DNA of 59,744 bases, from positions 1 to 59,744 of the IMG/VR virus record IMGVR_UViG_3300025127_000035. One strand, written 5' to 3'. Made by a program: the position numbers and the translations under genes. The notes under the pieces are model-generated. The model saw nothing but the letters and a program-made list of their open reading frames with translations, searched no databases and was not told the DNA's origin. This document shows, piece by piece, positions 5,767-59,744 of this stretch (within the stretch, counting starts at the first letter, position 1; each line of letters begins with the position of its first letter). This stretch comes from a virus (Duplodnaviria > Caudoviricetes).

Positions 5767-7349
5767 TGTCCTTTAAGCTTTCAAAAAAGGAGATTGTAAA
5801 AGAAATCCTTAAGTGTGGTAAAGATCCAGTTTACTTTACAAACAATTTTTGTAGGATCTCGCACCCGCTCAAAGGTCTCGTTCCGTTTAAAACTTATCCA
5901 TATCAAGATGATCTGTTAAACGATTATAACGATTTCCGCTTTACAGTTATCCTAAAAGCTCGACAGTTGGGGATCTCAACTATTACAGCCGCATATTGTG
6001 TGTGGCTTATGTTGTTTCATCGTGATAAAAATGTTTTGGTTATCGCGACTAAATTTGCAACTGCTGCTAACTTGGTAAAGAAAGTAAAACACATCATGAA
6101 AAATTTACCACCTTGGTTGCAAGTGGCTACAATTTCAATCGACAATAGAACATCATTTGAGTTGTCAAATGGCTCTCAAATCAAAGCGGCATCTACCTCT
6201 GGTGATGCTGGTCGTTCTGAAGCACTTTCGCTTTTGGTAATTGATGAGGCTGCACACGTTGATGGTCTAAAAGAACTATGGACCGGTTTATATCCCACTC
6301 TATCAACTGGTGGTCGCTGTATAGCACTTTCAACCCCAAACGGTGTTGGTAACTGGTTTCATAAAACCTATGTTGATGCTGACAGTAAGGAGAATGATTT
6401 TCATCCTGTCTGTCTTCCTTGGGATGTTCATCCCGAAAGAAATCAAGAATGGTTTGAGAAAGAGACAAAGAATATGTCTCGGAGACAAATAGCACAAGAG
6501 CTAGAATGTAACTTCAATACATCAGGTGATACTGTTATTCATCCTGATGATATTGCTTGGTTAAATCAAACAATTAGAGAACCAGTATATAGAACCGGTT
6601 ATGATAGAAACTTTTGGATTTGGGAGAAATTTGAAGAAGGTAGCACTTATTTGCTTGTCGCTGATGTTGCAAGAGGCGATGGTGCTGATAATTCTGTATT
6701 TCATGTTTTAAAATTAGAAACAATGGAGATCGTAGCCGAATACCAAGGCAAGCCTAATCTAGACATGTATGCTCAAATGTTATATTCAGCAGGCACAGAA
6801 TATGGAAACTGCCTTTTGGTCGTTGAAAACAATGGTATTGGTATATCCATCTTAGAAAAACTAATTACTCTTGGATATTCGAATCTTTATTATTCAATTA
6901 AATCGACACATGAGTTTGTTGAATCTGTTCAAGGTGAAGCCATGGACGGAGCAATAGCAGGTTTCACAACCTCTACCAAAACTCGTCCCTTGATTGTTGC
7001 AAAACTTGAGGAGTTTATAAGAAATAAAATGCTAAATATTTATTCATCAAGAACTTTTCATGAATTTAAAACTTTTATTTGGAAAAACGGAAAACCACAA
7101 GCCATGCGATCATATCACGATGACTTGGTTATGTCTTTGGCTATTGCTTGCTGGGTTAGAGATACCGCACTTCAAGTAAACGAGCGAGATGTAGAATATA
7201 AAAAAGCAATATTAAATTCTATGTATCTAAACAAAACCACAATGAATACCGCCATTAAAGGTATGAATGGATATGGTTTAGATATAAAGGAAAAACAATT
7301 AGAAGCAAAACAACAAATGAAAGATTTCGTTTGGATTTTTAAAGGATAG
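5766..7349 (+). CDS. terL: Terminase large subunit (T4 gp17-like)
   Basis: YPYQ adenine-binding motif, KARQLGIST Walker A, LLVIDEAAH Walker B, STPNG, nuclease ADVARG and HDDLVMS. Confidence 0.95.
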   Translation: MSFKLSKKEIVKEILKCGKDPVYFTNNFCRISHPLKGLVPFKTYPYQDDLLNDYNDFRFTVILKARQLGISTITAAYCVWLMLFHRDKNVLVIATKFATAANLVKKVKHIMKNLPPWLQVATISIDNRTSFELSNGSQIKAASTSGDAGRSEALSLLVIDEAAHVDGLKELWTGLYPTLSTGGRCIALSTPNGVGNWFHKTYVDADSKENDFHPVCLPWDVHPERNQEWFEKETKNMSRRQIAQELECNFNTSGDTVIHPDDIAWLNQTIREPVYRTGYDRNFWIWEKFEEGSTYLLVADVARGDGADNSVFHVLKLETMEIVAEYQGKPNLDMYAQMLYSAGTEYGNCLLVVENNGIGISILEKLITLGYSNLYYSIKSTHEFVESVQGEAMDGAIAGFTTSTKTRPLIVAKLEEFIRNKMLNIYSSRTFHEFKTFIWKNGKPQAMRSYHDDLVMSLAIACWVRDTALQVNERDVEYKKAILNSMYLNKTTMNTAIKGMNGYGLDIKEKQLEAKQQMKDFVWIFKG

Positions 7350-7354
7350 AAAAA

Positions 7355-9301
7355 ATGGCATCAAGAAACAATAATGGAAAAAACCCTTACAATGAAGAGT
7401 CTGGATTGTTTAAATCTTTAACTAGATTGTTTTCTGGCCCCCTGACACAAAGAAGAACACAATCGGGGCGTCAACTGCGTAGAAGGCACCTAGACATATA
7501 TTCGTCTCAATTTAAATCCGCATCAGGACAACAATTTAAAAAGTCTGAATATAATCCAATGAATGTCACAACTTTAAACATGATTGCAAACCGAAATCGT
7601 GCTGAAAGATATGTTGATTTTGATCAAATGGAATACGAACCAATTATCGCTTCTGCTCTTGATATTTATGCTGATGAGATGACAACGCATTCGTCTCTAC
7701 AACCAATGTTAAGAATCAAATGCCCAAATGAAGAAATTAAATCTATTTTACATTCTTTATATCACAATGTATTAAATATTGATCATAATCTTTTTGGTTG
7801 GTCTCGCACGATGTGCAAATATGGAGACTTCTTTTTATATCTGGACATCGATGATAAGCGAGGTATTACCACATGCATTGGATTACCACCACAAGAGATT
7901 GAGAGATTAGAAGGAAAAGACCCAACAAACCCAAATTATGTACAATTTCAGTGGAATAGTGCTGGAATGACATTAGAAAATTGGCAGCTTGCACATTTTA
8001 GAATACTTGGGAATGATAAATATGCCCCCTATGGCACTTCCGTTCTTGAACCGTCTCGACGAATTTGGAGACAACTAACTTTGCTTGAAGATGCTATGAT
8101 GGCTTACCGTATTGTTAGAAGCCCAGAGCGAAGAGTTTTTAAAATTGATGTTGGAAATATCGCACCAAACGATGTAGAACAATATATGCAGAAAGTTATG
8201 ACTCAAATGAAGAGACATCAGGTTGTCGATCCAAAAACAGGCCGAGTTGATCTTCGTTATAATCCTCTTTCAATTGAAGAAGATTATTTTATTCCTATTC
8301 GCGGTGGAACCTCTGGAACAGAAATTATAAATCTACCCGGTGGTCAGTTCACTGGAACTGTGGAGGATGTAAAATATTTAAGAGAAAAGCTATTTGCTGC
8401 TCTCAAAGTGCCGCAATCATATCTTGTAATGGGTGAGGGCGCACAAGAAGACAAAACAACTTTGGCTCAAAAAGATATTCGTTTCGCAAGAACAATTCAA
8501 AGATTACAAAGAGTTGTAATTGCAGAGCTTGAAAAAATTGGAATTATTCATCTTTTCACATTAGGTTTTCGTGGCGATGATCTTCTATCTTTTGATTTGG
8601 CTTTGAATAATCCTTCTAAAATTGCTGAACTTCAAGAACTTGAACACTGGAAAACTAAATTTGATGTCGCAGGCGCGGCTACCGAGGGTTTCTTTTCAAT
8701 GCGTTGGATTGCTGAGCACATGTTTGGTGTTTCAGAAGATGAATTTATTAGAATGCAAAGAGAAATGTTTTACGATAGAAAGTTTATGGCTTCGCTTGAG
8801 GCTGCTGGTCAAGCTCCCGAAGGCGGTGGAGCCGGTGGGGGTGATCTTGACCTCGGTGGCGATGATGCCGGTGGGGGTGATCTTGACCTCGGTGGTGACG
8901 ATGCAACTCCTGCTGAAACACCTGATCTTGGTGGCGATGATGCTGGTGCTGCTGCTGGTGGTGGCGAAGGAGATGACGATGTTCTTCTTGCTGCCCCCGG
9001 TAAACGAGACGACGATAAGTCAAGAGGCCCATATAAGAAACATCAATTAAAATATCGCAAAGGCGGCATGGCCAAACAAATGAAAAATCAAGCTACGGGT
9101 GAGTATGGAAACACCACCAGAAGTATATTTAAAGGCAAAACTGGTTTCGGTGGATTAGATTCATTAGCCAGAGGCATAACAGAAAATAAAACACTAGATA
9201 AAATAGAAGAAGAAAAACTATTTAATACATCAGCAGAAGTAAACAAACTTCTAGAAAGTTTAAAACATTTGGAGAACAAAGAGAATGAGAGTAAAACATA
9301 A
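7355..9301 (+). CDS. Portal protein (T4 gp20-like)
   Basis: EDAMMAYRIVRSPERRVFKIDVGN, EEDYFIP, LPGG, LKVP motifs. Confidence 0.95.
   Translation: MASRNNNGKNPYNEESGLFKSLTRLFSGPLTQRRTQSGRQLRRRHLDIYSSQFKSASGQQFKKSEYNPMNVTTLNMIANRNRAERYVDFDQMEYEPIIASALDIYADEMTTHSSLQPMLRIKCPNEEIKSILHSLYHNVLNIDHNLFGWSRTMCKYGDFFLYLDIDDKRGITTCIGLPPQEIERLEGKDPTNPNYVQFQWNSAGMTLENWQLAHFRILGNDKYAPYGTSVLEPSRRIWRQLTLLEDAMMAYRIVRSPERRVFKIDVGNIAPNDVEQYMQKVMTQMKRHQVVDPKTGRVDLRYNPLSIEEDYFIPIRGGTSGTEIINLPGGQFTGTVEDVKYLREKLFAALKVPQSYLVMGEGAQEDKTTLAQKDIRFARTIQRLQRVVIAELEKIGIIHLFTLGFRGDDLLSFDLALNNPSKIAELQELEHWKTKFDVAGAATEGFFSMRWIAEHMFGVSEDEFIRMQREMFYDRKFMASLEAAGQAPEGGGAGGGDLDLGGDDAGGGDLDLGGDDATPAETPDLGGDDAGAAAGGGEGDDDVLLAAPGKRDDDKSRGPYKKHQLKYRKGGMAKQMKNQATGEYGNTTRSIFKGKTGFGGLDSLARGITENKTLDKIEEEKLFNTSAEVNKLLESLKHLENKENESKT
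8831..8902 (+). repeat. 36-bp tandem repeat (two copies) in the portal C-terminal region
   Basis: GCCGGTGGGGGTGATCTTGACCTCGGTGG(C/T)GA(T/C)GAT twice, encoding AGGGDLDLGGDD. Confidence 0.85.
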
Positions 9302-11180: not shown

Positions 11181-11579
11181 ATGAAGATTACAAAAGAAAG
11201 ATTAGTACAAATTATCAAAGAAGAATTAAAAAATAATCAGATGGAAAGTGAGTTTCAGAAACCTCGTTACTCTTCCGATGATTATTGGAAAATGCAAAAA
11301 GTATTAAACGACAAATTTGGAACCACTTTTCAAAAAATTGATGGTCGTATGCAACGAGTTGAAACCCCTGCTTACCAAGAACTGATAAAAGACCTTGAAG
11401 AGCTTGGCCGACAAGATGTAATTGATCGGCTTCCTGTTCTAAGTTCAATTAGCATTTATATGGTGGCAGAAATAGCTCACTATGTCGAAACAAATGATAT
11501 GGAAGCGTTAGATAAAATGGTCAACAAAGCCAAACGCCATGGTCAAGCTGTTGTTAGAAGTGGGCCGTTGGGAACATGA
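11181..11579 (+). CDS. Hypothetical protein with MKIT..LVQIIKEE leader
   Basis: MKITKERLVQIIKEELKN; AAGGA RBS. Confidence 0.7.
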   Translation: MKITKERLVQIIKEELKNNQMESEFQKPRYSSDDYWKMQKVLNDKFGTTFQKIDGRMQRVETPAYQELIKDLEELGRQDVIDRLPVLSSISIYMVAEIAHYVETNDMEALDKMVNKAKRHGQAVVRSGPLGT

Positions 11580-12199
11580 AAAAACTTTTAACAGAATTTT
11601 ATGAATTATGTAAAGACGGTATCTGTCAAGACCTTTTAACCGAAAGAGAAAAACACGAAGTCGCTAACGGAGCACTTTATCTTTCCGGTCGCATTCAAAC
11701 TTGCGAGAAGAAGAATGGTAATGGCCGAATATATCCTTGTAATGTTTTGAAAAGAGAAATACAAAAATATGAGAGTGTTGTAAAAGATAACAGAGCATTA
11801 GGAGAATTAGACCACCCAGATGATTCAGTTATTAATCTTCGTAATGTATCTCATCTAATTACCGATATTTGGTGGGATGGTAACGATGTTATTGGAAAGA
11901 TTAAAATTTTGGACACACCATCAGGCAAAGTTGTAAAAGACCTTGTTAATTCTGGTGTTAAGCTTGGTATCTCATCAAGAGGTATGGGCTCTGTTCAAGA
12001 ACAAATGGGCGCATCTATGGTTCAAGAAGATTTTGAACTAATTTGTTTTGATATTGTCTCCGAGCCATCAACACCAGATGCTTATATTTACCCCGATAGC
12101 AAATCAAAAAATATCACGGCTTCTATTTATGAGAAGAAAATAAATGAAAACAAAGCTGAGATTATTGGAGATTTGTTTAAAAAGATTTTAAAGGATTAA
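11576..12199 (+). CDS. Prohead protease (T4 gp21-like)
   Basis: NGNGRIYP, ALGELDHP, catalytic GISSRG, FDIVSEPS. Confidence 0.95.
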   Translation: MKKLLTEFYELCKDGICQDLLTEREKHEVANGALYLSGRIQTCEKKNGNGRIYPCNVLKREIQKYESVVKDNRALGELDHPDDSVINLRNVSHLITDIWWDGNDVIGKIKILDTPSGKVVKDLVNSGVKLGISSRGMGSVQEQMGASMVQEDFELICFDIVSEPSTPDAYIYPDSKSKNITASIYEKKINENKAEIIGDLFKKILKD

Positions 12200-12202
12200 A
12201 AA

Positions 12203-13210
12203 ATGAGTAAATATTCAAGTTTTAAGAAAGATAAATTAATTTTTGAGAATTGGAGAAAATATCTCTCTGAAGAAGCAGACCCTAGAAAGATGAGTGCCGA
12301 TGACTTTCCAATGAAGTTAAGTGATGTTGGTGCTGAATATACACCTCAACAGGCAAAACAAATTGCGACAAGTGGGCTTAAAGATGGTGATAAAGGGGAT
12401 GATCAAATATCTGCTTCAACGGCAAGCTTTCCGGTTAAAAATTTGAAACCATCTCAATCTTCAATGAATATTGGTAAGGCTGTGGCTTTTGCTATTGCTG
12501 CGATTTTAAAAAACAAGCCTTTTCCAAACGGACCCGGTGGTAATCTAGGGGCGATGATTGATAAAGATAGTCACATTATGGATGGGCACCATCGATGGAT
12601 CGCAAGTGGAATGGTAAACCCAGACTCAGAGGTCGGAGGCTACCAAGTACAATTTCCCGCAGAAAAATTAATTCCAATTTTGAATATTCTTACACTTCAT
12701 TTTACAAAAAGCGCAAAAGGTAAGCCCGGTGGTGGGAGCTTTGAGGCATTTAATGAAGCAGGCATTGGCAAGGTGTTACAAAAATATGCTAAAGAAGGAG
12801 TCTGGTCAGCCAATGAAGATCCAAAAATGGTAATGAAGGCACTAGAAGAATTCACGGGACAATCTGGTCAAGCTGCGATTTCTGCTGCTGCTAAAAAAAT
12901 GGCTGATAATGTAAGTCAATTGACCCTCTCTGTTCCAGCAGGTTTCCCAGAAAGAGAAGATATGCCAATCATCAGTGCTAAGAAAGGACATTTGGATTTG
13001 GCAGTTAAACTATTAAACTCAGGCGCGATTGACGTAAATCCAAAATATGCTGGCAAATCTGGTGAACCCGGTGGGATTGTTCCTGATTCTGGTGGAATAT
13101 ATAAAAAAGGTGCTGACTCTGATGCTGGCTATGATGAAGAAGAAGCAAAACGTCAGAGAATGATGAGGAATCTTGAGGAAAATAAAAAACCCAAAAGAAG
13201 GAAAAAATGA
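12203..13210 (+). CDS. ParB/Srx-like domain protein with LIFENWRKYLSE N-terminus
   Basis: LKPSQ and HIMDGHHRW motifs of the ParB/sulfiredoxin N-domain. Confidence 0.65.
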   Translation: MSKYSSFKKDKLIFENWRKYLSEEADPRKMSADDFPMKLSDVGAEYTPQQAKQIATSGLKDGDKGDDQISASTASFPVKNLKPSQSSMNIGKAVAFAIAAILKNKPFPNGPGGNLGAMIDKDSHIMDGHHRWIASGMVNPDSEVGGYQVQFPAEKLIPILNILTLHFTKSAKGKPGGGSFEAFNEAGIGKVLQKYAKEGVWSANEDPKMVMKALEEFTGQSGQAAISAAAKKMADNVSQLTLSVPAGFPEREDMPIISAKKGHLDLAVKLLNSGAIDVNPKYAGKSGEPGGIVPDSGGIYKKGADSDAGYDEEEAKRQRMMRNLEENKKPKRRKK

Positions 13211-23905: not shown

Positions 23906-24937
23906 ATGTCTTCAATGTTAGAGCAAGCAATTGTGGATGCCGCAGCCCTTCGCGAAGCAGCCCTTAAAAACGCAGAACAATCAGTTATTGAGAAGTATGC
24001 ACCAGAAATTAAAGCAGCAGTTAATTCGCTGTTAGAGAACGATAACGTAATAACGGAACAAGAAATGGGCATGGAAGCAGCCCCTGCATCCGCTATTGAA
24101 GCACCATTTGCAGTTGCTGATCAATCACCCGGACAAGAAGTTGAAATGGGAATTGAGTTTACTTTTGATGCAAAAGACTTCCTTGATCTTGGGGATCTAA
24201 AACAACAAGCAGCCCAAGAAGAAGACCAACAAGCCGTTGAGGCCGATCAGGAAACAACAGAAGATGTTATGGCTGATTTGGGTCTCGATGATGCTGCCGA
24301 AGAAGAACCAACAGAAGATGATGACACTGCTGCAATTCAAGAGATACTAGATATGTTGTCTGAAGATGCAGACGAACAGGTCTTAGAAGAAGAGTTGGTT
24401 GTTGATATGGGTCATGTAAAAGATGGAACTTTCCAAACAAACGCTGGCCGTTTAAAATATGAAGAAGAAATGGAATTGGCCAAGACTGAATCAACTAAAT
24501 ACAAAGAAGAAAACGAAGCTCTTGAAAAGAAAATAGAAGATATGAAAGAATCTATTGAATCTTACAAGACAAAAAATAAAGAATTATACTCTGCTGTAAA
24601 GCAGTTAAATAATAAGTTAGAAGAGTCAATGTTATCAAACGCAAAATTGATTTATTCTAACAGAATATTAGGCGATGCCTCCTTGAATGAGCGACAAAAA
24701 GATAAAATTGTTGAAGCCATCGCTAACGCAAAAACCAAAGATGAAGCAAAGGCACTTTGTGAAACTCTTAAAGCTACAGTGGGAACCACTAAAAATGATG
24801 GTCCAAAATCACTTAGCGAGTCTGTTAACAGAAAGTCTAATTTATCTAATATTTTGCAAAGATCAAAAAGAAATATCAACGAGACACAAGAACATTCCTT
24901 CTCTGAAAGAATGAGAAAACTCGCTGGTCTTTCTTAG
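23906..24937 (+). CDS. Prohead scaffold/core protein (gp22-like)
   Basis: Acidic coiled coil immediately upstream of the major capsid gene; many (I/L)xE sites; ends RMRKLAGL. Confidence 0.8.
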   Translation: MSSMLEQAIVDAAALREAALKNAEQSVIEKYAPEIKAAVNSLLENDNVITEQEMGMEAAPASAIEAPFAVADQSPGQEVEMGIEFTFDAKDFLDLGDLKQQAAQEEDQQAVEADQETTEDVMADLGLDDAAEEEPTEDDDTAAIQEILDMLSEDADEQVLEEELVVDMGHVKDGTFQTNAGRLKYEEEMELAKTESTKYKEENEALEKKIEDMKESIESYKTKNKELYSAVKQLNNKLEESMLSNAKLIYSNRILGDASLNERQKDKIVEAIANAKTKDEAKALCETLKATVGTTKNDGPKSLSESVNRKSNLSNILQRSKRNINETQEHSFSERMRKLAGLS

Positions 24938-24958: not shown

Positions 24959-26848
24959 ATGTCTATTCTAGAAACACTTACAGAAGGCATTGTAAACCGT
25001 GATATGGCCAAAGAAGGGGAAGCTCTTCTTAACAAGTGGTCACAAACAGGTTTACTTGAAGGTCTTCAAACTGAAAGAGATAAGCACTCAATGGCTCGTC
25101 TCTTAGAAAACCAAGCAAAAGAACTTCTTCGTGAAAGTTCTACAATGGGTGCTGGCGATGTTCAAGGTTTCGCTGCTGTTGCATTCCCAATCGTTCGTCG
25201 TGTATTCGCTGGACTTATTGCTAACGACCTTGTTAGCGTTCAACCAATGAGTTTGCCATCTGGCCTCATTTTCTTCCTTGATTTCGTTCACTCGCCAAAT
25301 GCTGGTGGCGGAAACGGTGTATTCCCTCGTATGGGTAATGCATCTGATAAATCAATCTATGGTACAAACCAAGTTGGCTCCGAAGTCATTAATGGTGTTG
25401 ACCTTATCGATGCTGCTACCAAAGGCGGCTTTGGTGGTCCACTTCGTGATGGTGCTGTCGGTTATGCGTATGGATCTCCAAGCGGATCTAACGTTGATAC
25501 TGTTGCCAACGACACCAGTAATGCTGTTTTGAGAACATTCATGCTCAATGGTGCTGTTGCAGAGTCCGACAAGAAGCTTATTCAGTATGATCCTGATTTG
25601 CTTTCACAGACAGATGGGACTCGCGGTGTTCTTGCATTGGACGTAGCAAAAGCAGACTTGGAATCTATTTCTGGTGCTGCTGATGCTGATTTTAACAATG
25701 TCACACCATTTCAGATCGATCCTCTTACTGTTGATGCTAGTACATCAGCCCCAGCAAAGGCTTTTGTTGATGCACTTGTTAATCATAGCGGTATCACCAG
25801 TGGTACTTTAGCAGCCGCAGATTTGACACAAATTCGTCGTCTTACAAAGGCTCTTAAAAACGCAGACAGCCAATTGGCTAATGATGGTGGCGATGCTGTA
25901 CGCTTTATTATATCTGGTCCATCTGCTATCGTTGGAGCTTCTGCTGCCACTGCCGTTGGTACAACTCTTCCAATCGGATCTTTCAGCTTCCCAATTATTG
26001 ACAAGTTGAATGCTGGCTCTACTCTCGGTTCTATCGGATCCGCTAGTGACAACTATTCACTTGAAGGAAACCCTGATATCCCTGAGATCGACATCAAGGT
26101 TGACAGTACAGCTATTACAGCACAAACCAAGAAGTTGAAGGCCAAGTGGTCACCAGAATTGGGTCAAGACTTGAATGCATACCATAACTTGGATGCTGAA
26201 GTTGAATTGACTTCTATTCTTTCAGAGCAAGTTGCTTTGGAAATTGATCGCGAAATCCTTGCTGACCTTGTTAATGGCGCAACCGCTGCCACTTATTACT
26301 GGTCACGCTCACCGGGCCTCTTCGTTAATCGTGAGACCGGTGCTGAATTGGGTGCAACTTCTGCTGCTCCTGACTTCACAGGTACTGTTAGCGAATGGTA
26401 CGAGACTTTGATTGAAACCATCAATGATGTTTCTGCTCAAATTCATCGTAAGACACTTCGTGGCGGAGCTAACTATGTTGTTTGCTCACCAGAAGTTGCT
26501 AACATTCTTGAGTTCACCTCTGGCTTCCGTGCCAACGTCACTGCTGATGCAGACAAAGGCGTTATCGGTGCTCAAAACGTTGGTTCATTGAGCCGCAAGT
26601 TTGACGTTATCGTTGATCCTTATTTCCCACGTCAAGTCATTCTTGTTGGACGTAAGGGTAACTCATTCCTCGAAAGTGGATATGTGTATGCTCCTTATGT
26701 ACCACTCCAAGTAACACCTACTATCTTCGGTGTCGAGGACTTCGTTCCTCGTAAGGGGGTCATGACCCGCTACGCCAAGAAGATGGTCCGTCCAGATATG
26801 TATGGATTGGTTATTTGTCGTGGCTTGCTTGGCGAGTCCGGTTCCTAG
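24959..26848 (+). CDS. Major capsid protein (T4 gp23-like)
   Basis: LLENQ, VQPMSLPSGLIF, KLKAKWSPELGQDLNAYH, YAPYVPL, GVMTRY. Confidence 0.97.
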   Translation: MSILETLTEGIVNRDMAKEGEALLNKWSQTGLLEGLQTERDKHSMARLLENQAKELLRESSTMGAGDVQGFAAVAFPIVRRVFAGLIANDLVSVQPMSLPSGLIFFLDFVHSPNAGGGNGVFPRMGNASDKSIYGTNQVGSEVINGVDLIDAATKGGFGGPLRDGAVGYAYGSPSGSNVDTVANDTSNAVLRTFMLNGAVAESDKKLIQYDPDLLSQTDGTRGVLALDVAKADLESISGAADADFNNVTPFQIDPLTVDASTSAPAKAFVDALVNHSGITSGTLAAADLTQIRRLTKALKNADSQLANDGGDAVRFIISGPSAIVGASAATAVGTTLPIGSFSFPIIDKLNAGSTLGSIGSASDNYSLEGNPDIPEIDIKVDSTAITAQTKKLKAKWSPELGQDLNAYHNLDAEVELTSILSEQVALEIDREILADLVNGATAATYYWSRSPGLFVNRETGAELGATSAAPDFTGTVSEWYETLIETINDVSAQIHRKTLRGGANYVVCSPEVANILEFTSGFRANVTADADKGVIGAQNVGSLSRKFDVIVDPYFPRQVILVGRKGNSFLESGYVYAPYVPLQVTPTIFGVEDFVPRKGVMTRYAKKMVRPDMYGLVICRGLLGESGS

Positions 26849-26966: not shown

Positions 26967-27452
26967 ATGTCAAGAGTTGCAAGAAGTGCAAGAGTCGCAA
27001 GCCGCCAACGGCCAGAGATCATCACAACGGATAAAACTATTCAAGCCGCAGAAACTGGTGAACTTTACCTCATTAATCACAATGCTGGATCGACAATCAC
27101 TCTTACGTTGCCACCTGTTCAAGACGGAGCTTACTTTAGATTTCAATTTATGACTGCAATGAATGCGGTTGATGCTAAGGTTAATATTGTAACAGCAAAT
27201 GGTGCTGGAACTATAAAAGGTACAGTATTAAATTTCATATATCAAGCCTCTAGCGTAGATGCTGATGTCGCCACTAATAAAGACAATACCTCTTTGCTTC
27301 TTTGTTATAGTGGAAGTCTTACTGGACAGCCAGCCAATACAATTCATGTTGGAACATATTTAGACCTTCATTGCGATGGCACAAACTGGCAAGCTTCTGG
27401 GAAAACTATTGCTTCACATCTTTCTGCTTCCGTATTCCACATTGGTGCGTAA
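26967..27452 (+). CDS. Putative capsid decoration protein, tandem paralogue 1
   Basis: MSRVARSARVASRQR; TLTLPPVQDGAYFRFQF; CDGTNW, a distant form of the shared domain. Confidence 0.65.
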   Translation: MSRVARSARVASRQRPEIITTDKTIQAAETGELYLINHNAGSTITLTLPPVQDGAYFRFQFMTAMNAVDAKVNIVTANGAGTIKGTVLNFIYQASSVDADVATNKDNTSLLLCYSGSLTGQPANTIHVGTYLDLHCDGTNWQASGKTIASHLSASVFHIGA

Positions 27453-27568: not shown

Positions 27569-28021
27569 ATGTCAAGAGTTGCAAGAAGCGCAAGAGTCGC
27601 AAGCCGACAAAGAGCAGAAATTATTACAGGTGCTAAAACTATTCAAGCCGCAGAAACTGGTGAACTTTTCTTTTTTAATTATAATGCCGGTGCCGCAATT
27701 GAAGTAACTCTTCCTCCTGTTCAAGAGGGAGCATATTTTAGGTTTCAATTCATGGCTCAAATGAGCGACAACGACGCACAGATTGATATTGTAGCCTCTG
27801 GAAGTGATACAATTAAAGGCACTCTTGTGAATCTTATTTACGCTGGTTCTTCAGTTAATACCTCAATTGGAACCAATAAAGACGATGGAACTGATACAAA
27901 GGTTAGACTTACTGACGATATCCATGTGGGATCATATGTTGAACTTTATTGCGATGGTACAAACTGGCAAGCTACTGGTGTCATTATCGGCAGTGGTCGT
28001 GATGTTGGTGTCTTCGCCTAA
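27569..28021 (+). CDS. Putative capsid decoration protein, tandem paralogue 2
   Basis: Identical N-terminus and near-identical 5' DNA to 26967. Confidence 0.65.
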   Translation: MSRVARSARVASRQRAEIITGAKTIQAAETGELFFFNYNAGAAIEVTLPPVQEGAYFRFQFMAQMSDNDAQIDIVASGSDTIKGTLVNLIYAGSSVNTSIGTNKDDGTDTKVRLTDDIHVGSYVELYCDGTNWQATGVIIGSGRDVGVFA

Positions 28022-49289: not shown

Positions 49290-49532
49290 ATGAGTAATTA
49301 CACTGCATACACCGGAACTTTCGTAAACAAGAATGGCCAAACTCGTACCATGACCTTTATCCGTAAAGGTGATGTTCCAAGTTCTTTCTTTAACGGGAGT
49401 ATTAAGCGTAAACTTTCTGAGGGTATGGAAACCGTTTACGATGTAAATGCGAAAGGTTGGCGTACATTTAATAGCAATACACAAGTTGGCCAACTTTCAC
49501 AACAAACAGTACAATTTTCATTTGACAGTTAA
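49290..49532 (+). CDS. Small WYL_2/SH3-like beta-barrel protein
   Basis: AGGAG RBS before ATG 49290; F.NKNG..RTM...YDV..KGWRTF. Confidence 0.6.
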   Translation: MSNYTAYTGTFVNKNGQTRTMTFIRKGDVPSSFFNGSIKRKLSEGMETVYDVNAKGWRTFNSNTQVGQLSQQTVQFSFDS

Positions 49533-49550
49533 GCATAATTATGCTATAAT
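49522..49550 (+). promoter_or_regulatory. Sigma70-type promoter of ssb with a palindrome in the spacer
   Basis: TTGACA, 17 nt, TATAAT with TG extension; AGCATAATTATGCT at 49532-49545. Confidence 0.8.
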
Positions 49551-52967: not shown

Positions 52968-52997
52968 AAAAACCCTGATTAATTTCGGGGTTTTTTT
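52968..52997 (+). terminator. Intrinsic terminator
   Basis: AAAAACCCTGA...TCGGGGTTTTTTT. Confidence 0.75.
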
Positions 52998-52999
52998 AT

Positions 53000-53027
53000 T
53001 TGACAAATCAAAATATCGTGATATAAT
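53000..53027 (+). promoter_or_regulatory. Sigma70-type promoter of purA
   Basis: TTGACA, 16 nt, TATAAT with a TG extension. Confidence 0.75.
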
Positions 53028-53048: not shown

Positions 53049-54053
53049 ATGAAAGAAATACAATATGTAGACATTGTTGCCGATCTCTCTTGGGGAGACA
53101 CAGGCAAAGGAAAAATAACATCACATCTTGCGAAGGATAAATCTTATGATTATGTTTGTCGCTGGGCTGGTGGTAATAACGCTGGACACACAGTTTTCTT
53201 AAAAGGTAAGAAGTTCAAAACACATCTTATTCCATCTGGTGTTTTTCATGGAATTAAATCAATTATCGGGCCTCAATGCGTTGTGCATCCAGAGTCCTTA
53301 CAAGAAGAGTTAGACTATCTCAAGGAGAATGGATTTGATACTTCCTTAGTTAAGGTCTCTCCGAGAGCACATATTGTAACAAAAAAGCACATATCAGCAG
53401 ATAAAAGAAAACTAGCTAAGAAACTTGGGACAACCTCAAAAGGTATAGCCCCATGTTATTCAGACAAGATGGCTAGAACCGGACAATTAACAAAAGATGT
53501 TCTCCCAGAGGAATTAATATGGGATGAACAATTAAGTGGAAGAATTCTCTGCGAGGGGGCCCAAGGTTATTATTTAGATATAGACCATGGTAATTATCCT
53601 TATGTCACCTCATCCATTACACTACCCTATGGTGCTTGTTCCCTTGGGTTTCCTCCGCAGAAAATTCGCCGTATATGGGGCATAGCCAAGCTATATGATA
53701 CCCGTTCTGGTGTGGACCCACTATTCCCCGATAAGCTCCTAAAAGACAAGCAATTGGCCAAATTGGGCGATCTAGGGGGTGAAGTTGGAGTAACAACCGG
53801 ACGGAAAAGAAAGTGCAACTGGCTTAATGTCGATATGATGATTGATGCCGCAAGAAAAACAGGAACAACTCACTTGGTCATTAATAAATGCGATGTGATT
53901 AGAGAATTAGGCATCTTTAAGTGTTATAGCGGAGGAGAGTTAAAAGAATTTTCTTCTTATCACAAGATGACCGAGTTTATTACCGATAAAGTTGGCCAAT
54001 CTGATTCATTAGCAAAACACATTTACCTTTCAAACTCCCCGGAGAGACTATGA
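53049..54053 (+). CDS. purA: Adenylosuccinate synthetase, short form
   Basis: WGDTGKGK, GGNNAGHT, GTTSKGIAP, EGAQG, YPYVTSS, TTGRKR, NKCD. Confidence 0.92.
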   Translation: MKEIQYVDIVADLSWGDTGKGKITSHLAKDKSYDYVCRWAGGNNAGHTVFLKGKKFKTHLIPSGVFHGIKSIIGPQCVVHPESLQEELDYLKENGFDTSLVKVSPRAHIVTKKHISADKRKLAKKLGTTSKGIAPCYSDKMARTGQLTKDVLPEELIWDEQLSGRILCEGAQGYYLDIDHGNYPYVTSSITLPYGACSLGFPPQKIRRIWGIAKLYDTRSGVDPLFPDKLLKDKQLAKLGDLGGEVGVTTGRKRKCNWLNVDMMIDAARKTGTTHLVINKCDVIRELGIFKCYSGGELKEFSSYHKMTEFITDKVGQSDSLAKHIYLSNSPERL

Positions 54054-55009
54054 CCGAGAAAAAAAGATTATTAATTGTTGATGCACTTAACTTGTTTATA
54101 CGAAGTTATGTTATCATTCCAACTATGGACCCCTCCGGTATTCCAATTGGCGGCACTATTGGGTTTCTCAAGTCACTACAGAAGATTATGCGTCAATCAC
54201 GACCTCATGAGGTTATTATCTGTTGGGACGGAATTGGTGGCTCTCAGAGAAAGAAACAACAGAACGAGAACTACAAAGAGGGTAGAAAACCGCTTCGTTT
54301 TAATCGTCGCATGATTGAGCTTGACCCCAAAAGCCAAAAGCAAAACAAAATTCATCAACAGATTCGCTTGTTTGAGTATTTAAATGAGCTACCTGTAATG
54401 CAATTAACTTATGATGGTGTTGAGGCCGATGATGTAATTGCGATTGTTTCTCGTCACAAACACTATGAGGATTGGCAGAAGATTATTGTCTCAAGCGATA
54501 AAGATTTCTTCCAGTTGTGTGATGAGAGCACAGCGGTTTATAGACCAGTGCAAGATGTGTTGGAGACACAAGGTACAATAAAATATAGATTCGATATTCA
54601 TCCAAACAACTTTGCATTGGCCAGAGCAATTGCGGGGGATGCCTCGGACAACCTCAAGGGAGTGGGTCGTGTTGGGTTAAAAACCATCGCCAAAAATTTT
54701 ACATTCCTCTCCGAGTCGAAACAGTACGAGTTGGAAGATTTGGTCGAATATTGCGAGAACATAGAAAAAAAGAAAGTTGCACATAATAAAATTATTGAGA
54801 ATCAAAAGTTAATAGAAAATAATTACTCAATTATGCAGCTATATAGACCCTCGATTTCGGTGCTCAATAGAAAGAAAATTGACTACACCATAGCCAGTTT
54901 TGAAACAGAAAGCAATAAGATGAATTTCACAAAAATGCTTTTTGAAGACGGACAAGGATCTATAAATTTCACGGACTTATGGAATTTAATCAAAAATTTT
55001 CAAAGATAA
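54050..55009 (+). CDS. 5'-3' exonuclease / T4 RNase H-like flap nuclease
   Basis: IVDALN, YKEGR, EADDVIA, SSDKDF, GDASDNLKGV. Confidence 0.92.
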   Translation: MTEKKRLLIVDALNLFIRSYVIIPTMDPSGIPIGGTIGFLKSLQKIMRQSRPHEVIICWDGIGGSQRKKQQNENYKEGRKPLRFNRRMIELDPKSQKQNKIHQQIRLFEYLNELPVMQLTYDGVEADDVIAIVSRHKHYEDWQKIIVSSDKDFFQLCDESTAVYRPVQDVLETQGTIKYRFDIHPNNFALARAIAGDASDNLKGVGRVGLKTIAKNFTFLSESKQYELEDLVEYCENIEKKKVAHNKIIENQKLIENNYSIMQLYRPSISVLNRKKIDYTIASFETESNKMNFTKMLFEDGQGSINFTDLWNLIKNFQR

Positions 55010-55018
55010 AAAAGTCAT

Positions 55019-55047
55019 TTGACAAGATTACAAAAAGATGTTACATA
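55019..55047 (+). promoter_or_regulatory. Possible sigma70-type promoter of the helicase
   Basis: TTGACA, 17 nt, TACATA with a TG extension; weak -10. Confidence 0.45.
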
Positions 55048-55069
55048 GTTAAAAAGCATTGGAGGAAAA

Positions 55070-56428
55070 ATGGAACACACCAACGAAACATTTCAGAGAT
55101 TTGGAAAATCATTTCAAGAGGACTTGTGCCATTTGATGCTACAGGACAGACCTTTTTGCGATCAGATCACAGAGGTGCTTAGTCTTGAATTTTTGCAATA
55201 CGAGTATCTACGAGTATTCGCCAAGACAATTTTAGATTACCGCCGTGAGTACAAGATGCACCCATCTTACAAGATTATGGCGACACATATTTCCGCAGGG
55301 CTTGGCGAGTACTCCGATGCTCTTCAAAAACAAATAAGACAGTTTTATGCTAAGGTACTCTCAAATTCAGAGATTGAAGGTACACAATATATTAAAGATA
55401 ATGCTCTTGACTTTTGCCGCAAACAGGTCCTAAAAGGAGCCATGATGAAATCGGTAAAACTCATCAAAACTTCATCTTTTGACGAGATACAGAAAGTTAT
55501 CCAAGATGCTCTTAAACTCGGAACCGACAATAACTTTGGCCATGATTACCTTAAAGACTTTGAGGAAAGATTCCAAATAAAATCTCGCGATCCGATATCA
55601 ACCGGGTGGGATAGAATCGATGATATCTGCAAGGGTGGACTTGGTAAACGGGAGCTTGGAGTTGCGATTGCCCCTACCGGGGCTGGAAAGTCTATGGTGC
55701 TCGCTGCGCTCGGTGCTGCCGCACTTAAACAAGGAAAAACTGTTGTTCACTATACACTAGAATTAGCCGACACTGTTGTCGGGTCAAGATACGATTCATC
55801 AATATCGAGCGTTCCATTAGGCGACCTAATGTCGAATAAACAAAAAATTCTCGATGTTGTAAAAGATATTGAAGGAACTCTAATTATTAAAGAGTATCCA
55901 ACGAAGTCTGCTTCAACGGAAACAATCAAAAATCACATCGAAAGGTTAAAGAAGCGCGGAATTGAACCAGACATGATTATTGTCGATTATGCCGATCTTT
56001 TGAGACCAGTTAAGGAGACCCGTGAGAAACGCCACGACCTTGAAAACATTTATGAAGAGTTGCGAGCAATCGCACAAATTTATGATTGTCCGATGTGGAC
56101 AGCTTCACAAACAAACAGGTCAGGTCTAAATGCGGAAGTTATCACCATGGAGGCGATATCAGAAGCCTTCAATAAATGCTTTGTCTCTGATTTTATATTT
56201 TCGTTGTCGAGAACCATCGAAGACAAGAATGCGAACACTGGAAGAGTCTTTGTCGCCAAGAATAGAAATGGCCCAGATGGCCTTGTGTTTCCCATTTTCG
56301 CTGATTGGTCGAGAGTTACGATGAAAGTATTAGAGAGACAAGATGAGACAATGGATGCTGCTGTGCAAGAATCCACAAAATCAACCGTAGAATTTTTAAA
56401 GAACAAATACAAAAATATGAAAAAATAG
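55070..56428 (+). CDS. dnaB: Replicative helicase (DnaB/T4 gp41-like)
   Basis: APTGAGKS, YTLEL, IKEYP, IVDYADL, TASQTNR, KNRNG. Confidence 0.93.
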   Translation: MEHTNETFQRFGKSFQEDLCHLMLQDRPFCDQITEVLSLEFLQYEYLRVFAKTILDYRREYKMHPSYKIMATHISAGLGEYSDALQKQIRQFYAKVLSNSEIEGTQYIKDNALDFCRKQVLKGAMMKSVKLIKTSSFDEIQKVIQDALKLGTDNNFGHDYLKDFEERFQIKSRDPISTGWDRIDDICKGGLGKRELGVAIAPTGAGKSMVLAALGAAALKQGKTVVHYTLELADTVVGSRYDSSISSVPLGDLMSNKQKILDVVKDIEGTLIIKEYPTKSASTETIKNHIERLKKRGIEPDMIIVDYADLLRPVKETREKRHDLENIYEELRAIAQIYDCPMWTASQTNRSGLNAEVITMEAISEAFNKCFVSDFIFSLSRTIEDKNANTGRVFVAKNRNGPDGLVFPIFADWSRVTMKVLERQDETMDAAVQESTKSTVEFLKNKYKNMKK

Positions 56429-56439
56429 AGGGAGTTATT

Positions 56440-58431
56440 ATGTTAAAAATTGGAAATATTAATGTTCGGAGATTTGGTCTATCAGATCAATTTATCGATC
56501 AATATAAAACAAAAGAGGTTCCATGGGGCCCTGTTGGTTATATCACCTATAAACGAACCTATGCTCGTCGTTTAAACGAGATAGATGCAAATGTTAAAGG
56601 TACAGAGGAGTGGTATCAGACTTGTCGTCGTGTCATTGAAGGAATGTTCGACATTCAAAAAAGACATGTGTTTGCTCTTGGATTAGAGTGGAATGATGCT
56701 AAAGCACAAAGAACAGCAAAAGAAGCTTATGATCGTTTGTTTAATTTAAAGTGGACACCGCCCGGTCGTGGTCTATGGATGATGGGAACTAAATTCATTT
56801 ATGAAAGAACAGGTGCTGGTCTATTCAATTGTGCTTTCCGCTCAACAAAAGACTTATCTTCCAAAGGAGGATATATTTTCGCTTGGATGATGGATGCTTT
56901 GATGGTTGGTATTGGTGTTGGCTTTGATACACTCGGTGCTAAGACTTTAACAATCAAAGAGCCACAATGGACAAAAGAGACTCTTATTATTGATGATAGT
57001 CGTGAAGGGTGGGTTGATTCGGTTCACATGCTTCTTGATGGATATCTGCAAGGTAAAAAAGTTCCCACTTTTGATTATTCAAAAATTCGTCCCGAAGGGG
57101 CACCAATTAAAGGCTTTGGGGGAACTTCAAGCGGCCCTGCTCCTTTAATTGAACTTCATAACAATTTAAAAGAATTATATAACGAAAAAATCGGTGAACC
57201 GATTTCATCAATTGACATTGTTGATACCGAAAACCTCATTGGTCGTTGCGTTGTTGCTGGTAACGTTCGACGCTCTGCTGCTCTTGCTTTGGGACAACAT
57301 GATGATCGTGAATACCTTACCATGAAAAATGATCAAGAAAAACTTTATCATCACCGCTGGGGTTCTAATAATTCTTTTGAGGCCAAAATCGGTATGGACT
57401 ATACTTGGCATGCCGAACAGTCACAAAAGAACGGCGAGCCCGGTTATATTTGGCTTCATAATGCTCGCCACTATGGCCGCATGAAGGATGGTAAAAGATA
57501 TGATGATATGAAGGTTATGGGCTTCAATCCTTGCGTTGAGCAACAATTGGAAGACGGAGAGCTTTGTTGCTTGGTCGAAACTTTCCCTGCAAAACACGAT
57601 TCTTACGAAGATTATGTTAAGACACTTGAAATTGCTTATTTGTATGGTAAGACAGTTACTCTTGTGAATACACACTGGAGAGAAACTAATGCTATCATGC
57701 TAAAGAACCGCCGCATTGGTTTGTCTCAATCAGGCGTAGTACAAGCTTTTAATAAGCATACACGAAGAACCATGTTACAGTGGTGTGACGATGCTTACGA
57801 ACATGTAACTGAGATGGATAAAGAATATGCTGATTGGCTTTGTATTCCTCGCTCTGTTAGAATGACCTCTATCAAACCAAGTGGAACAGTGTCTCTTCTC
57901 AATGGTTCAACACCGGGTATTCACTTCCCAGAGAATGAGTTTTACATTAGGAGGATACGCTTTGGAAAGGATTCCGATTTATTACCAACTTTGAAAGAAG
58001 CAGGTTATAAAATTGAAGATGATAAATATTCACCGAATACTGTTTGTGTTGAGTTTCCAGTAAAAGAGCCTTACTTTGTTAAAGGTAAAAAAGATGTTTC
58101 TATGTGGGAACAGCTAGAAATTGCTTCACAATACCAGCACTATTGGGCAGATAATAGCGTTAGTATTACGGTAACCTTCAATGCTAATGAGGCTCCGCAA
58201 ATCAAAGATGCTTTGGAGCTTTATGAATCTCGTCTAAAAGCCGTGTCTTTTTTAAGATATCAAGAGACGGGATATGAGCAAGCTCCTTACGAGCCAATCA
58301 CAGAAGAACAATATAATGAAATGATAAAGGGTATCACCCCTATACAAAGAATCGACACAGAGGAAGAAGGAGTTGGTTCTAAATACTGCACAAATGATTC
58401 GTGCGAAATTAATTTTGGAGAAGAAAAATGA
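56440..58431 (+). CDS. nrdJ: Class II (B12-dependent, monomeric RTPR-type) ribonucleotide reductase
   Basis: PPGRGLW, NCAF, VRRSA, NPCVEQ, IKPSGTVS, C-terminal CTNDSC. Confidence 0.93.
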   Translation: MLKIGNINVRRFGLSDQFIDQYKTKEVPWGPVGYITYKRTYARRLNEIDANVKGTEEWYQTCRRVIEGMFDIQKRHVFALGLEWNDAKAQRTAKEAYDRLFNLKWTPPGRGLWMMGTKFIYERTGAGLFNCAFRSTKDLSSKGGYIFAWMMDALMVGIGVGFDTLGAKTLTIKEPQWTKETLIIDDSREGWVDSVHMLLDGYLQGKKVPTFDYSKIRPEGAPIKGFGGTSSGPAPLIELHNNLKELYNEKIGEPISSIDIVDTENLIGRCVVAGNVRRSAALALGQHDDREYLTMKNDQEKLYHHRWGSNNSFEAKIGMDYTWHAEQSQKNGEPGYIWLHNARHYGRMKDGKRYDDMKVMGFNPCVEQQLEDGELCCLVETFPAKHDSYEDYVKTLEIAYLYGKTVTLVNTHWRETNAIMLKNRRIGLSQSGVVQAFNKHTRRTMLQWCDDAYEHVTEMDKEYADWLCIPRSVRMTSIKPSGTVSLLNGSTPGIHFPENEFYIRRIRFGKDSDLLPTLKEAGYKIEDDKYSPNTVCVEFPVKEPYFVKGKKDVSMWEQLEIASQYQHYWADNSVSITVTFNANEAPQIKDALELYESRLKAVSFLRYQETGYEQAPYEPITEEQYNEMIKGITPIQRIDTEEEGVGSKYCTNDSCEINFGEEK

Positions 58432-58619
58432 ATGATAAAATGTTAGAAATAATCAGTATCTTAAACGGTACAGCAGATGACCTTGATAAGCTTGAAAATA
58501 AAAAGTATGGCTATAAGTCCTCCGCTGTTAGGGCAAGAAAAGCTTGTCAGGAAGCTATTAATATGCTTAAGCAAATGAGAAAGGATATTCAAGATTCTAA
58601 AAACGAAGTGGAGGGGTAA
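58428..58619 (+). CDS. Small helical protein, Hc1-family-like
   Basis: D.DK...G.KSSAVRARKA.QE....K.MRK pattern. Confidence 0.5.
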   Translation: MNDKMLEIISILNGTADDLDKLENKKYGYKSSAVRARKACQEAINMLKQMRKDIQDSKNEVEG

Positions 58620-58903
58620 TGAACTTTGAACCAACTAATCGTCACATTTTAGTTAATCCTATCGAGGAAGAACAAGAAGAATCAAATTCTTTAATTATGC
58701 TTCCTGATGATTATAAAAAACAAGAATCACCTTATCTGGCTTGTTCTGTCCTCGCAATAGCGAGCGACAGCAAGCTTGTTGATTCTATTCGCCAATATGA
58801 TACCATAGTTATTGAAAGAAGAATGTTACAAAAAATAGCCATGAATGGAACAGAAATCTATTTAGTCCTAGACAACTATGTTATGGGGAGATTTTTAGAA
58901 TGA
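58619..58903 (+). CDS. groES: GroES/cpn10-like co-chaperonin
   Basis: FEPTNRHILVNP, mobile loop SLIMLPDD, C-terminal YLVLDNYVMG. Confidence 0.75.
   Translation: MNFEPTNRHILVNPIEEEQEESNSLIMLPDDYKKQESPYLACSVLAIASDSKLVDSIRQYDTIVIERRMLQKIAMNGTEIYLVLDNYVMGRFLE
58857..58864 (+). promoter_or_regulatory. Late-promoter motif embedded in groES
   Basis: TCTATTTA starts 43 nt before ATG 58900, the same offset as 1844 to 1887. Confidence 0.45.
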
Positions 58904-59583
58904 AATTAGATGCTCAAATGCTTAAAGAATTAATTAAAGAGGCGGCTGGTCCGTCTATGCTTTTAGAAGAACCAGTTATTACTGAATCTTCTTTTAATCG
59001 CATCAAAGACAAGGTAGATAACTCAGATATTTCTTTTGTTGTCATGTCTGCTGATCGTCATGAAAAATCAAGAAATGAAAACGATCAAAGAGGTAAAGAA
59101 TTAAAGGCTGCTTGGAAAGCTGCTGGGTTTCCCTTTACTGAAATTGATGGCTCTTGGGTTGAGAAGGACGAAGACGGAAATGAAGTTCGCGTTATCGAAA
59201 AATCGATTGTCGTTACCGATGAAGAACGAGGTGATGTTGAGAAAGGCGAAGCAGATCTCTTCGAGAAGGCTAAAGAATTAAGCTCAAAATACGAACAAGA
59301 TGCTTTTATCTTTGGTGAAACGGGCTCTCGTTCCGGTAAAAGATACATCGATGCATTTGCTCCTGACGGTAGCCGTGTTGAATATGGTGGCCCTTGGACA
59401 AGTCTTGAGCCAATCGAAAAGGATGCTAATTTCTGGTCCAGAGTTCGTGGATCCACATTTGTATTCAAAGAACAGCAAGAAGAAGTTGTTGAAGTTGGTG
59501 CTCCAAACTCTGTTATCGAAGCAATGATTAAGGCAGAGATGCACAAAGACAAGAAAATTAAATTTGTGCGGAGGAAGAAGTGA
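58900..59583 (+). CDS. T3-SAMase-like (SAM lyase fold) protein with putative capsid-targeting leader
   Basis: Leader MKLDAQMLKELIKEA..ITE; core VMSADR, EN.QR, GSWVE, IEKSIVV, YEQDAFIF. Confidence 0.6.
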   Translation: MKLDAQMLKELIKEAAGPSMLLEEPVITESSFNRIKDKVDNSDISFVVMSADRHEKSRNENDQRGKELKAAWKAAGFPFTEIDGSWVEKDEDGNEVRVIEKSIVVTDEERGDVEKGEADLFEKAKELSSKYEQDAFIFGETGSRSGKRYIDAFAPDGSRVEYGGPWTSLEPIEKDANFWSRVRGSTFVFKEQQEEVVEVGAPNSVIEAMIKAEMHKDKKIKFVRRKK

Positions 59584-59744
59584 GCGAATATGAAAAGTCT
59601 GTTCCCCTATATGATGACGGGATTGGTCGTGTGGATTACATTTCTCATATGGGTAGTGACCTTACCGTCGTCAATTCTGCTAGGGTTTCTTTTGGCGTGG
59701 AGAAGTTACAGTTGGATAACAGGGACAGGAAACTTATCAAGTAT
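59580..59744 (+). CDS. thyX: Flavin-dependent thymidylate synthase ThyX, 3'-truncated
   Basis: GTG start overlapping the upstream TGA; translates MSEYEKSVPLYDDGIGRVDYISHMGSDLTVVNSARVSF...LIKY. Confidence 0.85.
   Translation, partial: MSEYEKSVPLYDDGIGRVDYISHMGSDLTVVNSARVSFGVEKLQLDNRDRKLIKY

Follow-up and report, generated by a model that had tools for sequence, protein, structure and literature searches.

The 59,744-bp sequence IMGVR_UViG_3300025127_000035 from IMG/VR, which we analyzed over its full length (hereafter, the window), derives from a marine, distant T4-like myovirus with a GC content of 38%, and its convincing genes all lie on the + strand. We focus here on an open reading frame (ORF) at 58900–59583 (+) encoding a 227-amino-acid (aa) protein predicted to be an S-adenosylmethionine (SAM) lyase. 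The gene is the penultimate member of a block devoted to replication and nucleotide metabolism, which runs in the order UvsX-like, PurA/PurZ-like, 5'-3' exonuclease, DnaB-like helicase, class II ribonucleotide reductase (RNR), Hc1-like, GroES-like, SAM lyase and ThyX-like; a preliminary description of the sequence had already placed the gene among nucleotide-metabolism genes. Each neighbor is overlapped by 4 nucleotides (nt). The upstream gene (58619–58903, +) encodes a Cpn10/GroES-like co-chaperonin analogous to T4 gp31 (PF00166, E 1.4e-6; phrog_3188); its stop codon overlaps the ATG of the SAM-lyase gene (ATGA), to which it is translationally coupled, and it also hosts a late-promoter-like heptamer considered below. 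A Shine-Dalgarno-like GGGGAG, read from the sequence, lies 9 nt 5' of the start codon (58885–58890, +).

The protein can be divided into an N-terminal leader (residues 1–29; 58900–58986, +), a SAM lyase core (residues 30–195; 58987–59484, +) and a conserved basic C-terminal tail (residues 196–227, net charge +4.8; 59485–59583 with the stop codon, +). Its match to the S-AdoMet lyase family PF23780 (41.1 bits, E 2.2e-10) clears the cut-off of 28 bits and spans residues 47–186, on profile positions 1–129 of 133. The sequence blocks to which the preliminary description had drawn attention are all found in the translation (VVMSADR 47–53, ENDQR 60–64, KAAG 73–76, GSWVE 84–88, IEKSIVV 99–105, and YEQDAFIF 131–138), as is the leader end VITE(29)|SS. 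Those blocks had been proposed to be collinear with the SAM-degrading enzyme (SAMase) of phage T3. Using the gene 0.3 product from record NC_003298 as the T3 reference, hhalign with a 98-sequence family profile aligned exactly these blocks (probability 89.5%, E 2e-6). Sequence-only searches of the Protein Data Bank (PDB) were blank (for phmmer with the protein, the best hit was an unrelated nanobody at E 1; for a 25-sequence profile, the best E was 1.2), and the link to T3 was reached only through hhalign and a search by fold. The family is abundant in marine metagenomes: one search recovered 134 relatives, and a second recovered 379 cluster representatives. We note that NC_003298 names T3 gene 0.3 a "SAM-dependent methyltransferase" and that phrog_2226, which the SAM-lyase ORF matches at E 2.5e-6, has the same label; the methyltransferase label on SAM lyases is probably an annotation error that has since been propagated.

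Structural information supports the assignment. An AlphaFold2 (AF2) model built on 98 homologues reached a pLDDT of 87.9 and a pTM of 0.72. The preliminary description had suggested comparing the protein with phage SAM lyase structures using Foldseek, and this search of the PDB recovered the SAM lyase fold: the top seven matches are all SAM lyases, with T3 at probability 1.00. By VIA-align, the T3 enzyme (8bb1_E) superimposes with a Z of 13.6 and a root-mean-square deviation of 2.7 Å over 129 of 147 residues (model range 37–191), and the next unrelated folds (PII, CutA and ribosomal) score a Z of ~6. The core includes G84, W86, E88, E100, S102, Q133 and D134, and hhalign pairs T3 G55, Y57, E68, Q94 and D95 with G84, W86, E100, Q133 and D134, respectively. 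Among 98 diverse homologues, E100 and Q133 are invariant (98/98 each), G84 is present in 97, and position 134 is D or E in 91. In active SAM lyases, a Gly, a Glu and a Gln are the sole strictly conserved residues (Svi3-3 G56/E69/Q104; T3 E68/Q94; Guo et al., PMC7877911), and the T3 double mutant E68Q/Q94A is catalytically dead (bioRxiv 10.1101/2023.02.27.530186). The Tyr that packs on the sulfonium (Tyr58 in Svi3-3, Tyr57 in T3) is conservatively substituted in the family, and a Y58F change in Svi3-3 causes a fivefold loss of activity (PMC7877911). The Trp that replaces this Tyr here had been raised as a possible sign of inactivity. That concern is answered by the family itself, because Trp is one of its three normal aromatic states (W 44, Y 38, F 12; aromatic in 94/98). 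We therefore consider it very likely, from sequence and model, that the protein belongs to the SAM lyase family with an intact active site, and we predict a catalytically competent enzyme that converts SAM to 5'-methylthioadenosine and homoserine lactone.

The C-terminal tail, recognized by alignment, charge and the AF2 model, is predicted to form a strand (196–200), a helix (205–214) and a second strand (219–223) at a pLDDT of ~80–84. It is tethered via a variable linker, at which some homologues carry an insert of ~100 aa. Other homologues contain two tandem SAM-lyase domains, and one 6888-aa protein matches the query in 10 stretches.

The preliminary description had also singled out an N-terminal leader, and our analysis bears this out. 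In the AF2 model, residues 5–16 form a helix followed by a flexible linker (pLDDT <50 at 24–27), and the core begins at residue 30. Distant homologues match from residue ~26 onward, and four homologue sequences start 3–5 residues before the E|SS junction; therefore, residues 1–25 are an add-on. Similar openings occur elsewhere in the genome. Counting both strands, the window has 42 ORFs of 50 aa or more that open with ATGAAR. The pattern MK[LI]-x4-5-L-x2-[LI]I-x-E is found in six of them, all on the + strand and starting at 1887, 2833, 3231, 4510, 11181 and 58900. Similarity among them is limited to the first ~16 residues, beyond which they are unrelated, and the leaders differ at synonymous codon sites, indicating that the peptide rather than a DNA cassette has been conserved.

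Four of the leader-bearing ORFs are clustered just 5' of the large terminase gene (5766–7349): three small ORFs at 1887–2204 (+; ACTATTTA lies 42 nt upstream), 2833–3234 (+) and 3231–3653 (+), and an ORF at 4510–5220 (+), whose start we set at the internal ATG that opens the leader. A fifth (11181–11579, +) sits directly 5' of the prohead protease gene, the position occupied by gp68 in the T4 order 20-67-68-21-22-23. The protease itself (11576–12199, +; PF03420 Peptidase_S77, E 5.5e-32) is homologous to T4 gp21 and is the presumed clipping enzyme. Four more ORFs with the same opening and different cargo were found in related IMG/VR loci. PHROGs, Pfam and NCBIfam returned no function for the other five leader ORFs of the window, nor for scaffold candidates at 12203–13210 and 23906–24937. 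One source labels a homologue of the lyase a "predicted small secreted protein"; we rejected a signal peptide, as the leader is charged and amphipathic, not hydrophobic. Altogether, the sequences support the view that the leader belongs to the T4 capsid-targeting type of tag: modular, shared between ORFs and specific to its lineage. The cleavage-site preference of gp21 is L/I-x-E. Proteases of this type cut after Glu (PMC5694885), and the leader offers two compatible candidate sites, after E14 (LIKE|A; I-K-E14|A) and after E29 (VITE|SS; I-T-E29|S).

Homologues in other phages point in the same direction. A tblastn search with the homologue of P-TIM68 detected the family in 15 phage records, including P-TIM68, S-H34, S-N03, S-CREM2, four AG-34x marine viruses, Paraglaciecola phage GD1, two Alishewanella phages and a Campylobacter phage, and a T4-type protease is encoded in all five of the tested isolate genomes that carry a homologue. 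Their leaders vary, yet all join the core at the same E|SS(L/F)xR junction. Those of the P-TIM68, AG-345-L05 and GD1 homologues are of the form MKT[YF]xEF, and S-H34 and S-CREM2 have related acidic leaders. In T4 (NC_000866), the internal proteins start in the same way: ipII and ipIII with MKTYQEFIAE, and ipI with MKTFKEF. These N-termini are capsid-targeting sequences removed by gp21 (PMC3012670, PMC9958956, PMC5694885). A DNA pattern for MKx[YF]xEF found nine sites in five phage genomes, and the reversed control pattern found none. The nine are T4 ipI, ipII, ipIII and 61.1; the SAM-lyase homologues of P-TIM68, S-H34 and GD1; and GD1 gp8 and gp90.

In GD1, the gp8 gene is flanked by those of the annotated prohead core protein and the protease and so occupies the gp68 position. 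Taken with the leader matches in the window, this means that in two lineages with different tags, the lyase bears the tag of its own phage's core protein. The correspondence is not general: in P-TIM68, S-H34, S-CREM2 and Slickus01, the ORFs before the protease lack the homologue's leader, so that a rule equating the lyase leader with that of the gp68-position ORF failed in these four phages and holds only in the window and GD1. Among the remaining sites, GD1 gp90 (annotated as a nuclease, MKSFKEF) and T4 gp61.1 (a 54-aa hypothetical protein, MKTFKEF) start with a leader of the T4 internal-protein type; possibly, these are unrecognized packaged proteins.

Direct precedent for a SAM lyase in the virion comes from S-CREM2. 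ORF6 of this phage shares 27% identity with the SAM-lyase ORF (BLASTP E 4e-11; hhalign 95.8%), and mass spectrometry of virions purified on CsCl identified 19 of its peptides, covering 26.3% of the sequence (PMC10665884). Its authors proposed that the SAM hydrolase enters the host at infection and shields the DNA from restriction-modification (PMC10665884), so that for S-CREM2 the literature already contains the concept of such an enzyme being carried in the virion and entering with the DNA. Annotated as "SAM hydrolase (virion protein)," ORF6 has a homologous core, and its leader ends at the same E|SS junction. It differs from the protein studied here in its length (414 aa), its long and very basic C-terminal extension, its family (Kyanoviridae) and its position adjoining a Dam methylase gene. 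The available text of the S-CREM2 paper makes no mention of a capsid-targeting leader or protease clipping (PMC10665884). In a limited literature search, this paper alone combined a SAM-degrading enzyme with virion terms, and none was found that connects SAM lyases with internal proteins or capsid-targeting sequences. The present analysis adds four elements: a rationale for capsid targeting, tags matched to each lineage, a conserved promoter embedded in the neighboring gene, and a wide occurrence of the family among marine T4-like phages.

A DNA adenine methylase, itself a SAM-dependent enzyme, is encoded two genes 5' of the SAM-lyase homologue in both S-H34 and S-CREM2; how such a phage keeps from depriving this methylase of SAM is a natural question.

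As for the control of expression, the preliminary description had placed a private late promoter, CTATTTA, within groES 43 nt upstream of the gene. The heptamer does lie inside the GroES-like gene (58858–58864, +), where its first base precedes the ATG by 42 rather than 43 nt. The motif is not more frequent in the window than expected by chance (16 copies, against 14.4 ± 4.2 in shuffles), but neither its orientation nor its position is random: 14 of the copies are on the + strand. Eight of these are intergenic and 22–45 nt before the starts of structural genes; all of these are preceded by A, and several follow terminator-like hairpins. Because of these eight structural-gene sites, and with sigma-70 promoters serving the replication block, CTATTTA is a good candidate for the core of the phage's late promoter.

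The copy at 58858 was at first judged to be a chance occurrence, given its low score on a flank-aware position weight matrix (PWM) and a number of intragenic + copies (six) close to the shuffle expectation; comparative conservation led us to revise this view. In the window and 16 IMG/VR loci in which the gene is likewise adjacent to groES (43%–90% protein identity), the heptamer lies 41–46 nt before the ATG in 17 of 17. It is kept in two codon frames, xxC-TAT-TTA (encoding [I/F/N]-Y-L) and ACT-ATT-TAY (T-I-Y), and nearby synonymous sites vary. Given the residues and the codon usage of the window, the probability of the heptamer arising by chance is 0.046–0.17 per context, values that may not be multiplied as the loci are related. 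Four loci have another gene context, one with an intergenic ACTATTTAA and three with CTAATTA. Where the leader is of the MKEIMNEWRK type, CTAATTA stands between the gene and the 3' end of an apparent tRNA gene directly before it. In five related contigs, the heptamer occurs 120 times in gene sense and 19 times in antisense. The T4 late-promoter sequence, TATAAATA, is present in exact form upstream of the S-CREM2 and AG-345-L05 homologues. These comparisons support DNA-level conservation of the CTATTTA copy upstream of the SAM-lyase gene and make a dedicated late-type promoter likely. Hence, the proposal of a private late promoter draws support from conservation across the groES-adjacent loci in two frames, and its weak side is the poor flanks of the local copy (T before and G after).

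Exclusively late synthesis is not supported. The block that holds the SAM-lyase gene is headed by a consensus sigma-70-type promoter (53000–53027, +; TTGACA-16-TATAAT with an extended TG, 12/12), just before which lies an 11-pair terminator-like hairpin (52968–52995). Since no strong terminator intervenes between this promoter and the SAM-lyase gene, the gene is probably read through from 53000 and may also be expressed early. Dual early and late synthesis is therefore possible. A second 12/12 consensus promoter with an extended TG is found at 49522–49550, and together the two suggest a host with canonical sigma-70 recognition rather than promoters of the Bacteroidota type.

Comparison with characterized systems sharpens what is unusual about this protein. 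The T3 SAM lyase (PDB 7OCK, 8BB1) belongs to the same Pfam family, is the closest fold, and has collinear blocks in which E68, Q94 and D95 correspond to E100, Q133 and D134. However, the T3 enzyme is 152 aa long, lacks a leader and a C-terminal tail, carries Tyr where Trp occurs here, and is encoded by the first of the early genes, downstream of host promoters. The enzyme studied here has in addition a leader of 29 aa and a basic tail of 32 aa, and its gene belongs to a T4-like myovirus. The Svi3-3 SAM lyase (PDB 6ZM9/6ZNB) shares the SAM-binding pattern of Gly, an aromatic residue, Glu and Gln-acidic, but is a weaker structural match (Z 6.0–6.5; Foldseek E 0.02–0.03), is trimeric and PII-like, and has no targeting peptide. 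T4 IPI*, IPII, IPIII and Alt offer the other half of the comparison: they have in common a short N-terminal propeptide found on head-internal proteins and a gp21-type protease, and IPI* and Alt are precedents for an injected anti-restriction protein and an injected enzyme, respectively (PMC3012670, PMC9958956, PMC5694885). The window leader MKLxxxxLKxLIxE differs from those of T4 in sequence and is longer than their 10 residues; the cyanophage and GD1 homologues carry the T4-type leader itself. The presumed cargo differs as well: an enzyme that degrades a metabolite takes the place of a nuclease inhibitor or an ADP-ribosyltransferase.

These observations lead us to propose that the SAM lyase is built as a T4-style internal head protein that is probably packed in the virus particle and delivered with the DNA. 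An N-terminal propeptide of ~14–29 residues, shared with prohead-core proteins, would direct the lyase into the assembling prohead core, where the gp21-type protease would remove it after E14 and/or E29 to leave an N terminus at A15 or S30. The mature lyase would stay in the DNA-filled head and be ejected with the genome. Once inside the cell, and ahead of all phage gene expression, it would deplete the SAM on which type I restriction and BREX depend as a cofactor. The preliminary description had already envisaged late synthesis, packaging, clipping and injection, a reading that the computations support in part. For this phage we infer the targeting, clipping, ejection, activity and anti-defense effect; packaging and injection are argued by analogy and from the virion proteome of one distant homologue. 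We assign the full mechanism, a leader-targeted, clipped and injected SAM lyase acting against SAM-dependent defenses, a probability of roughly 0.55.

Several observations weigh against this proposal. Proteomic support comes from only one homologue, 27% identical and belonging to a different phage family. The mature protein is acidic (pI ~5.3) and basic only at its C-terminal tail, and the cyanophage homologues are very basic (pI 9.7–10.7); given this contrast, the two may behave differently inside a DNA-filled head. Of 118 homologues, 104 have L or I at P3 of the junction, and leaderless ones are among them, so L/I-x-E at this position may be structural rather than a cleavage site. SAM lyase active sites sit between subunits (PMC7877911), and an ejected enzyme must therefore re-oligomerize; a complex prediction with two copies of residues 30–227 and the 98-homologue alignment (score 0.06, mark 0.42) gave no answer either way. 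The gene occupies an early-type operon behind the consensus sigma-70 promoter at 53000, and the CTATTTA site at 58858 scores 2.7 bits on the PWM derived from the eight intergenic sites, for which leave-one-out scores are 5.8–20.3. As for the mode of action, T3 mutants without SAMase activity still overcome restriction, and SAM depletion may thus not be the whole mechanism. The T3 SAMase also acts through MetK binding (bioRxiv 10.1101/2023.02.27.530186). Finally, a SAM-AMP-specific relative exists, and the substrate is accordingly not certain.

One alternative is a cytoplasmic enzyme of the T3 type, produced from an early or middle operon and acting only in the infected cell, in which case the leader helix would serve oligomerization or regulation, or would mark a recombination-prone gene start. 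The location of the gene among replication and nucleotide-metabolism genes after a 12/12 sigma-70 promoter, its translational coupling on both sides and the atypical flanks of the local CTATTTA all fit such an enzyme, as does the early cytoplasmic role of the T3 SAM lyase (PMC7877911). We nevertheless regard it as unlikely, since it leaves unexplained why the leader is common to five ORFs of the head module, that in the gp68 position among them, why homologues bear the leader of T4 internal proteins and one is present in virions, and why the upstream heptamer is kept although the codon frame differs between loci. A mere footprint of DNA recombination is, in turn, disfavored by the synonymous differences that separate the leaders.

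Packaging and injection might also be correct with a target other than free SAM, the enzyme instead cleaving the SAM-AMP of type III CRISPR systems or mainly binding and blocking host MetK. The phage SAM lyase superfamily includes a SAM-AMP-specific enzyme in which only the Glu and Gln of SAM lyase recur (PMC12255297); in this SAM-AMP lyase, the candidate AcrIIIB4, a T-loop accommodates the AMP moiety (PMC12255297). Likewise, the T3 lyase inhibits MetK, and its catalytically dead mutant retains part of the anti-BREX effect (bioRxiv 10.1101/2023.02.27.530186). The SAM-AMP lyase has been likened to the trimeric Svi3-3 type, which our model resembles far less (Z 6.0–6.5) than it does T3 (Z 13.6), and the N-terminal MetK-binding residues described for T3 have no evident counterpart here. 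Neither point is decisive, and we consider these targets improbable. It is harder still to see the protein as a component of the prohead core or scaffold that has kept a SAM lyase fold, has no enzymatic role after injection and is degraded as are T4 gp67 and gp68, which end as small peptides (PMC9958956). The leader shared with the gp68-position ORF is what one would expect of such a component; however, key ligand-binding and catalytic residues are conserved across the 98 diverse homologues (E100 and Q133 in all), and the S-CREM2 homologue persists in mature virions at 26.3% coverage (PMC10665884). This last explanation is therefore highly doubtful.

Other features of the window place the phage and add several observations to the account. 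Besides the terminase, the structural genes include a T4-type portal homologous to gp20 (7355–9301, +; PF07230, E 2.3e-75), tail sheath and tape measure genes, and a 629-aa T4-type major capsid protein homologous to gp23 (24959–26848, +; PF07068, E 1.5e-72). The Gp23 domain match in the capsid protein begins only at residue ~343, leaving a long N-terminal region before it. By this protein, the closest cultured relatives are 41%–49% identical in partial alignments only, and its relatives comprise an uncultured jumbo phage, Flavobacterium phage immuto, Microcystis phage Mel-JY01 and Rhodothermus phage RM378. A megablast search with 55000–59744 found no match in the phage collection. Two tandem paralogous ORFs (26967–27452 and 27569–28021) with near-identical N-termini (MSRVARSARVASRQR...) lie 3' of the capsid gene, the first of them preceded by a CTATTTA site. 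In the replication block, a 63-aa ORF between the RNR and GroES-like genes (58428–58619) matches Pfam Hc1, a chlamydial histone H1-like family, above the cut-off (E 4.1e-6). A short (334 aa) adenylosuccinate-synthetase-like gene (53049–54053) matches PHROG 1211, whose label is a PurZ-type name, and all NCBIfam PurA and PurZ models fell under their cut-offs (PurZ, 111.5 bits against 300); a role in making 2-aminoadenine DNA would be speculative.

T3-type SAM lyases are regarded as early cytoplasmic enzymes, and delivery of a pre-made enzyme would give this family a different place in infection. A T4-like phage ejects its whole genome within seconds, and an enzyme made after entry would therefore come too late against SAM-dependent restriction or BREX. 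Pre-made delivery would solve this timing problem, as IPI* does against GmrSD. T4-like internal proteins are present at 40–370 copies per head (PMC9958956), and Svi3-3 turns over ~10 times per second (PMC7877911); by a rough estimate from these values and an assumed SAM pool, the few thousand SAM molecules of a small marine cell could vanish in seconds. We speculate, as a tentative extension, that marine T4-like lineages use their own N-terminal tags, co-evolving with their prohead cores, to load "first-strike" enzymes, in this instance a SAM lyase and elsewhere a nuclease. The tag may also hold the lyase inactive until the protease clips it, sparing the SAM of the producing cell and, in phages with an adjacent SAM-dependent methylase gene, of that methylase. 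The idea of leader-directed cargo can be tested directly in three phages available in culture, S-CREM2, P-TIM68 and Paraglaciecola GD1. If this reading of the tag is true, the leader by itself would be enough to recognize injected cargo in a phage genome, and leader logic would offer a sequence-only route to predicting the injected proteins of uncultured T4-like phages.

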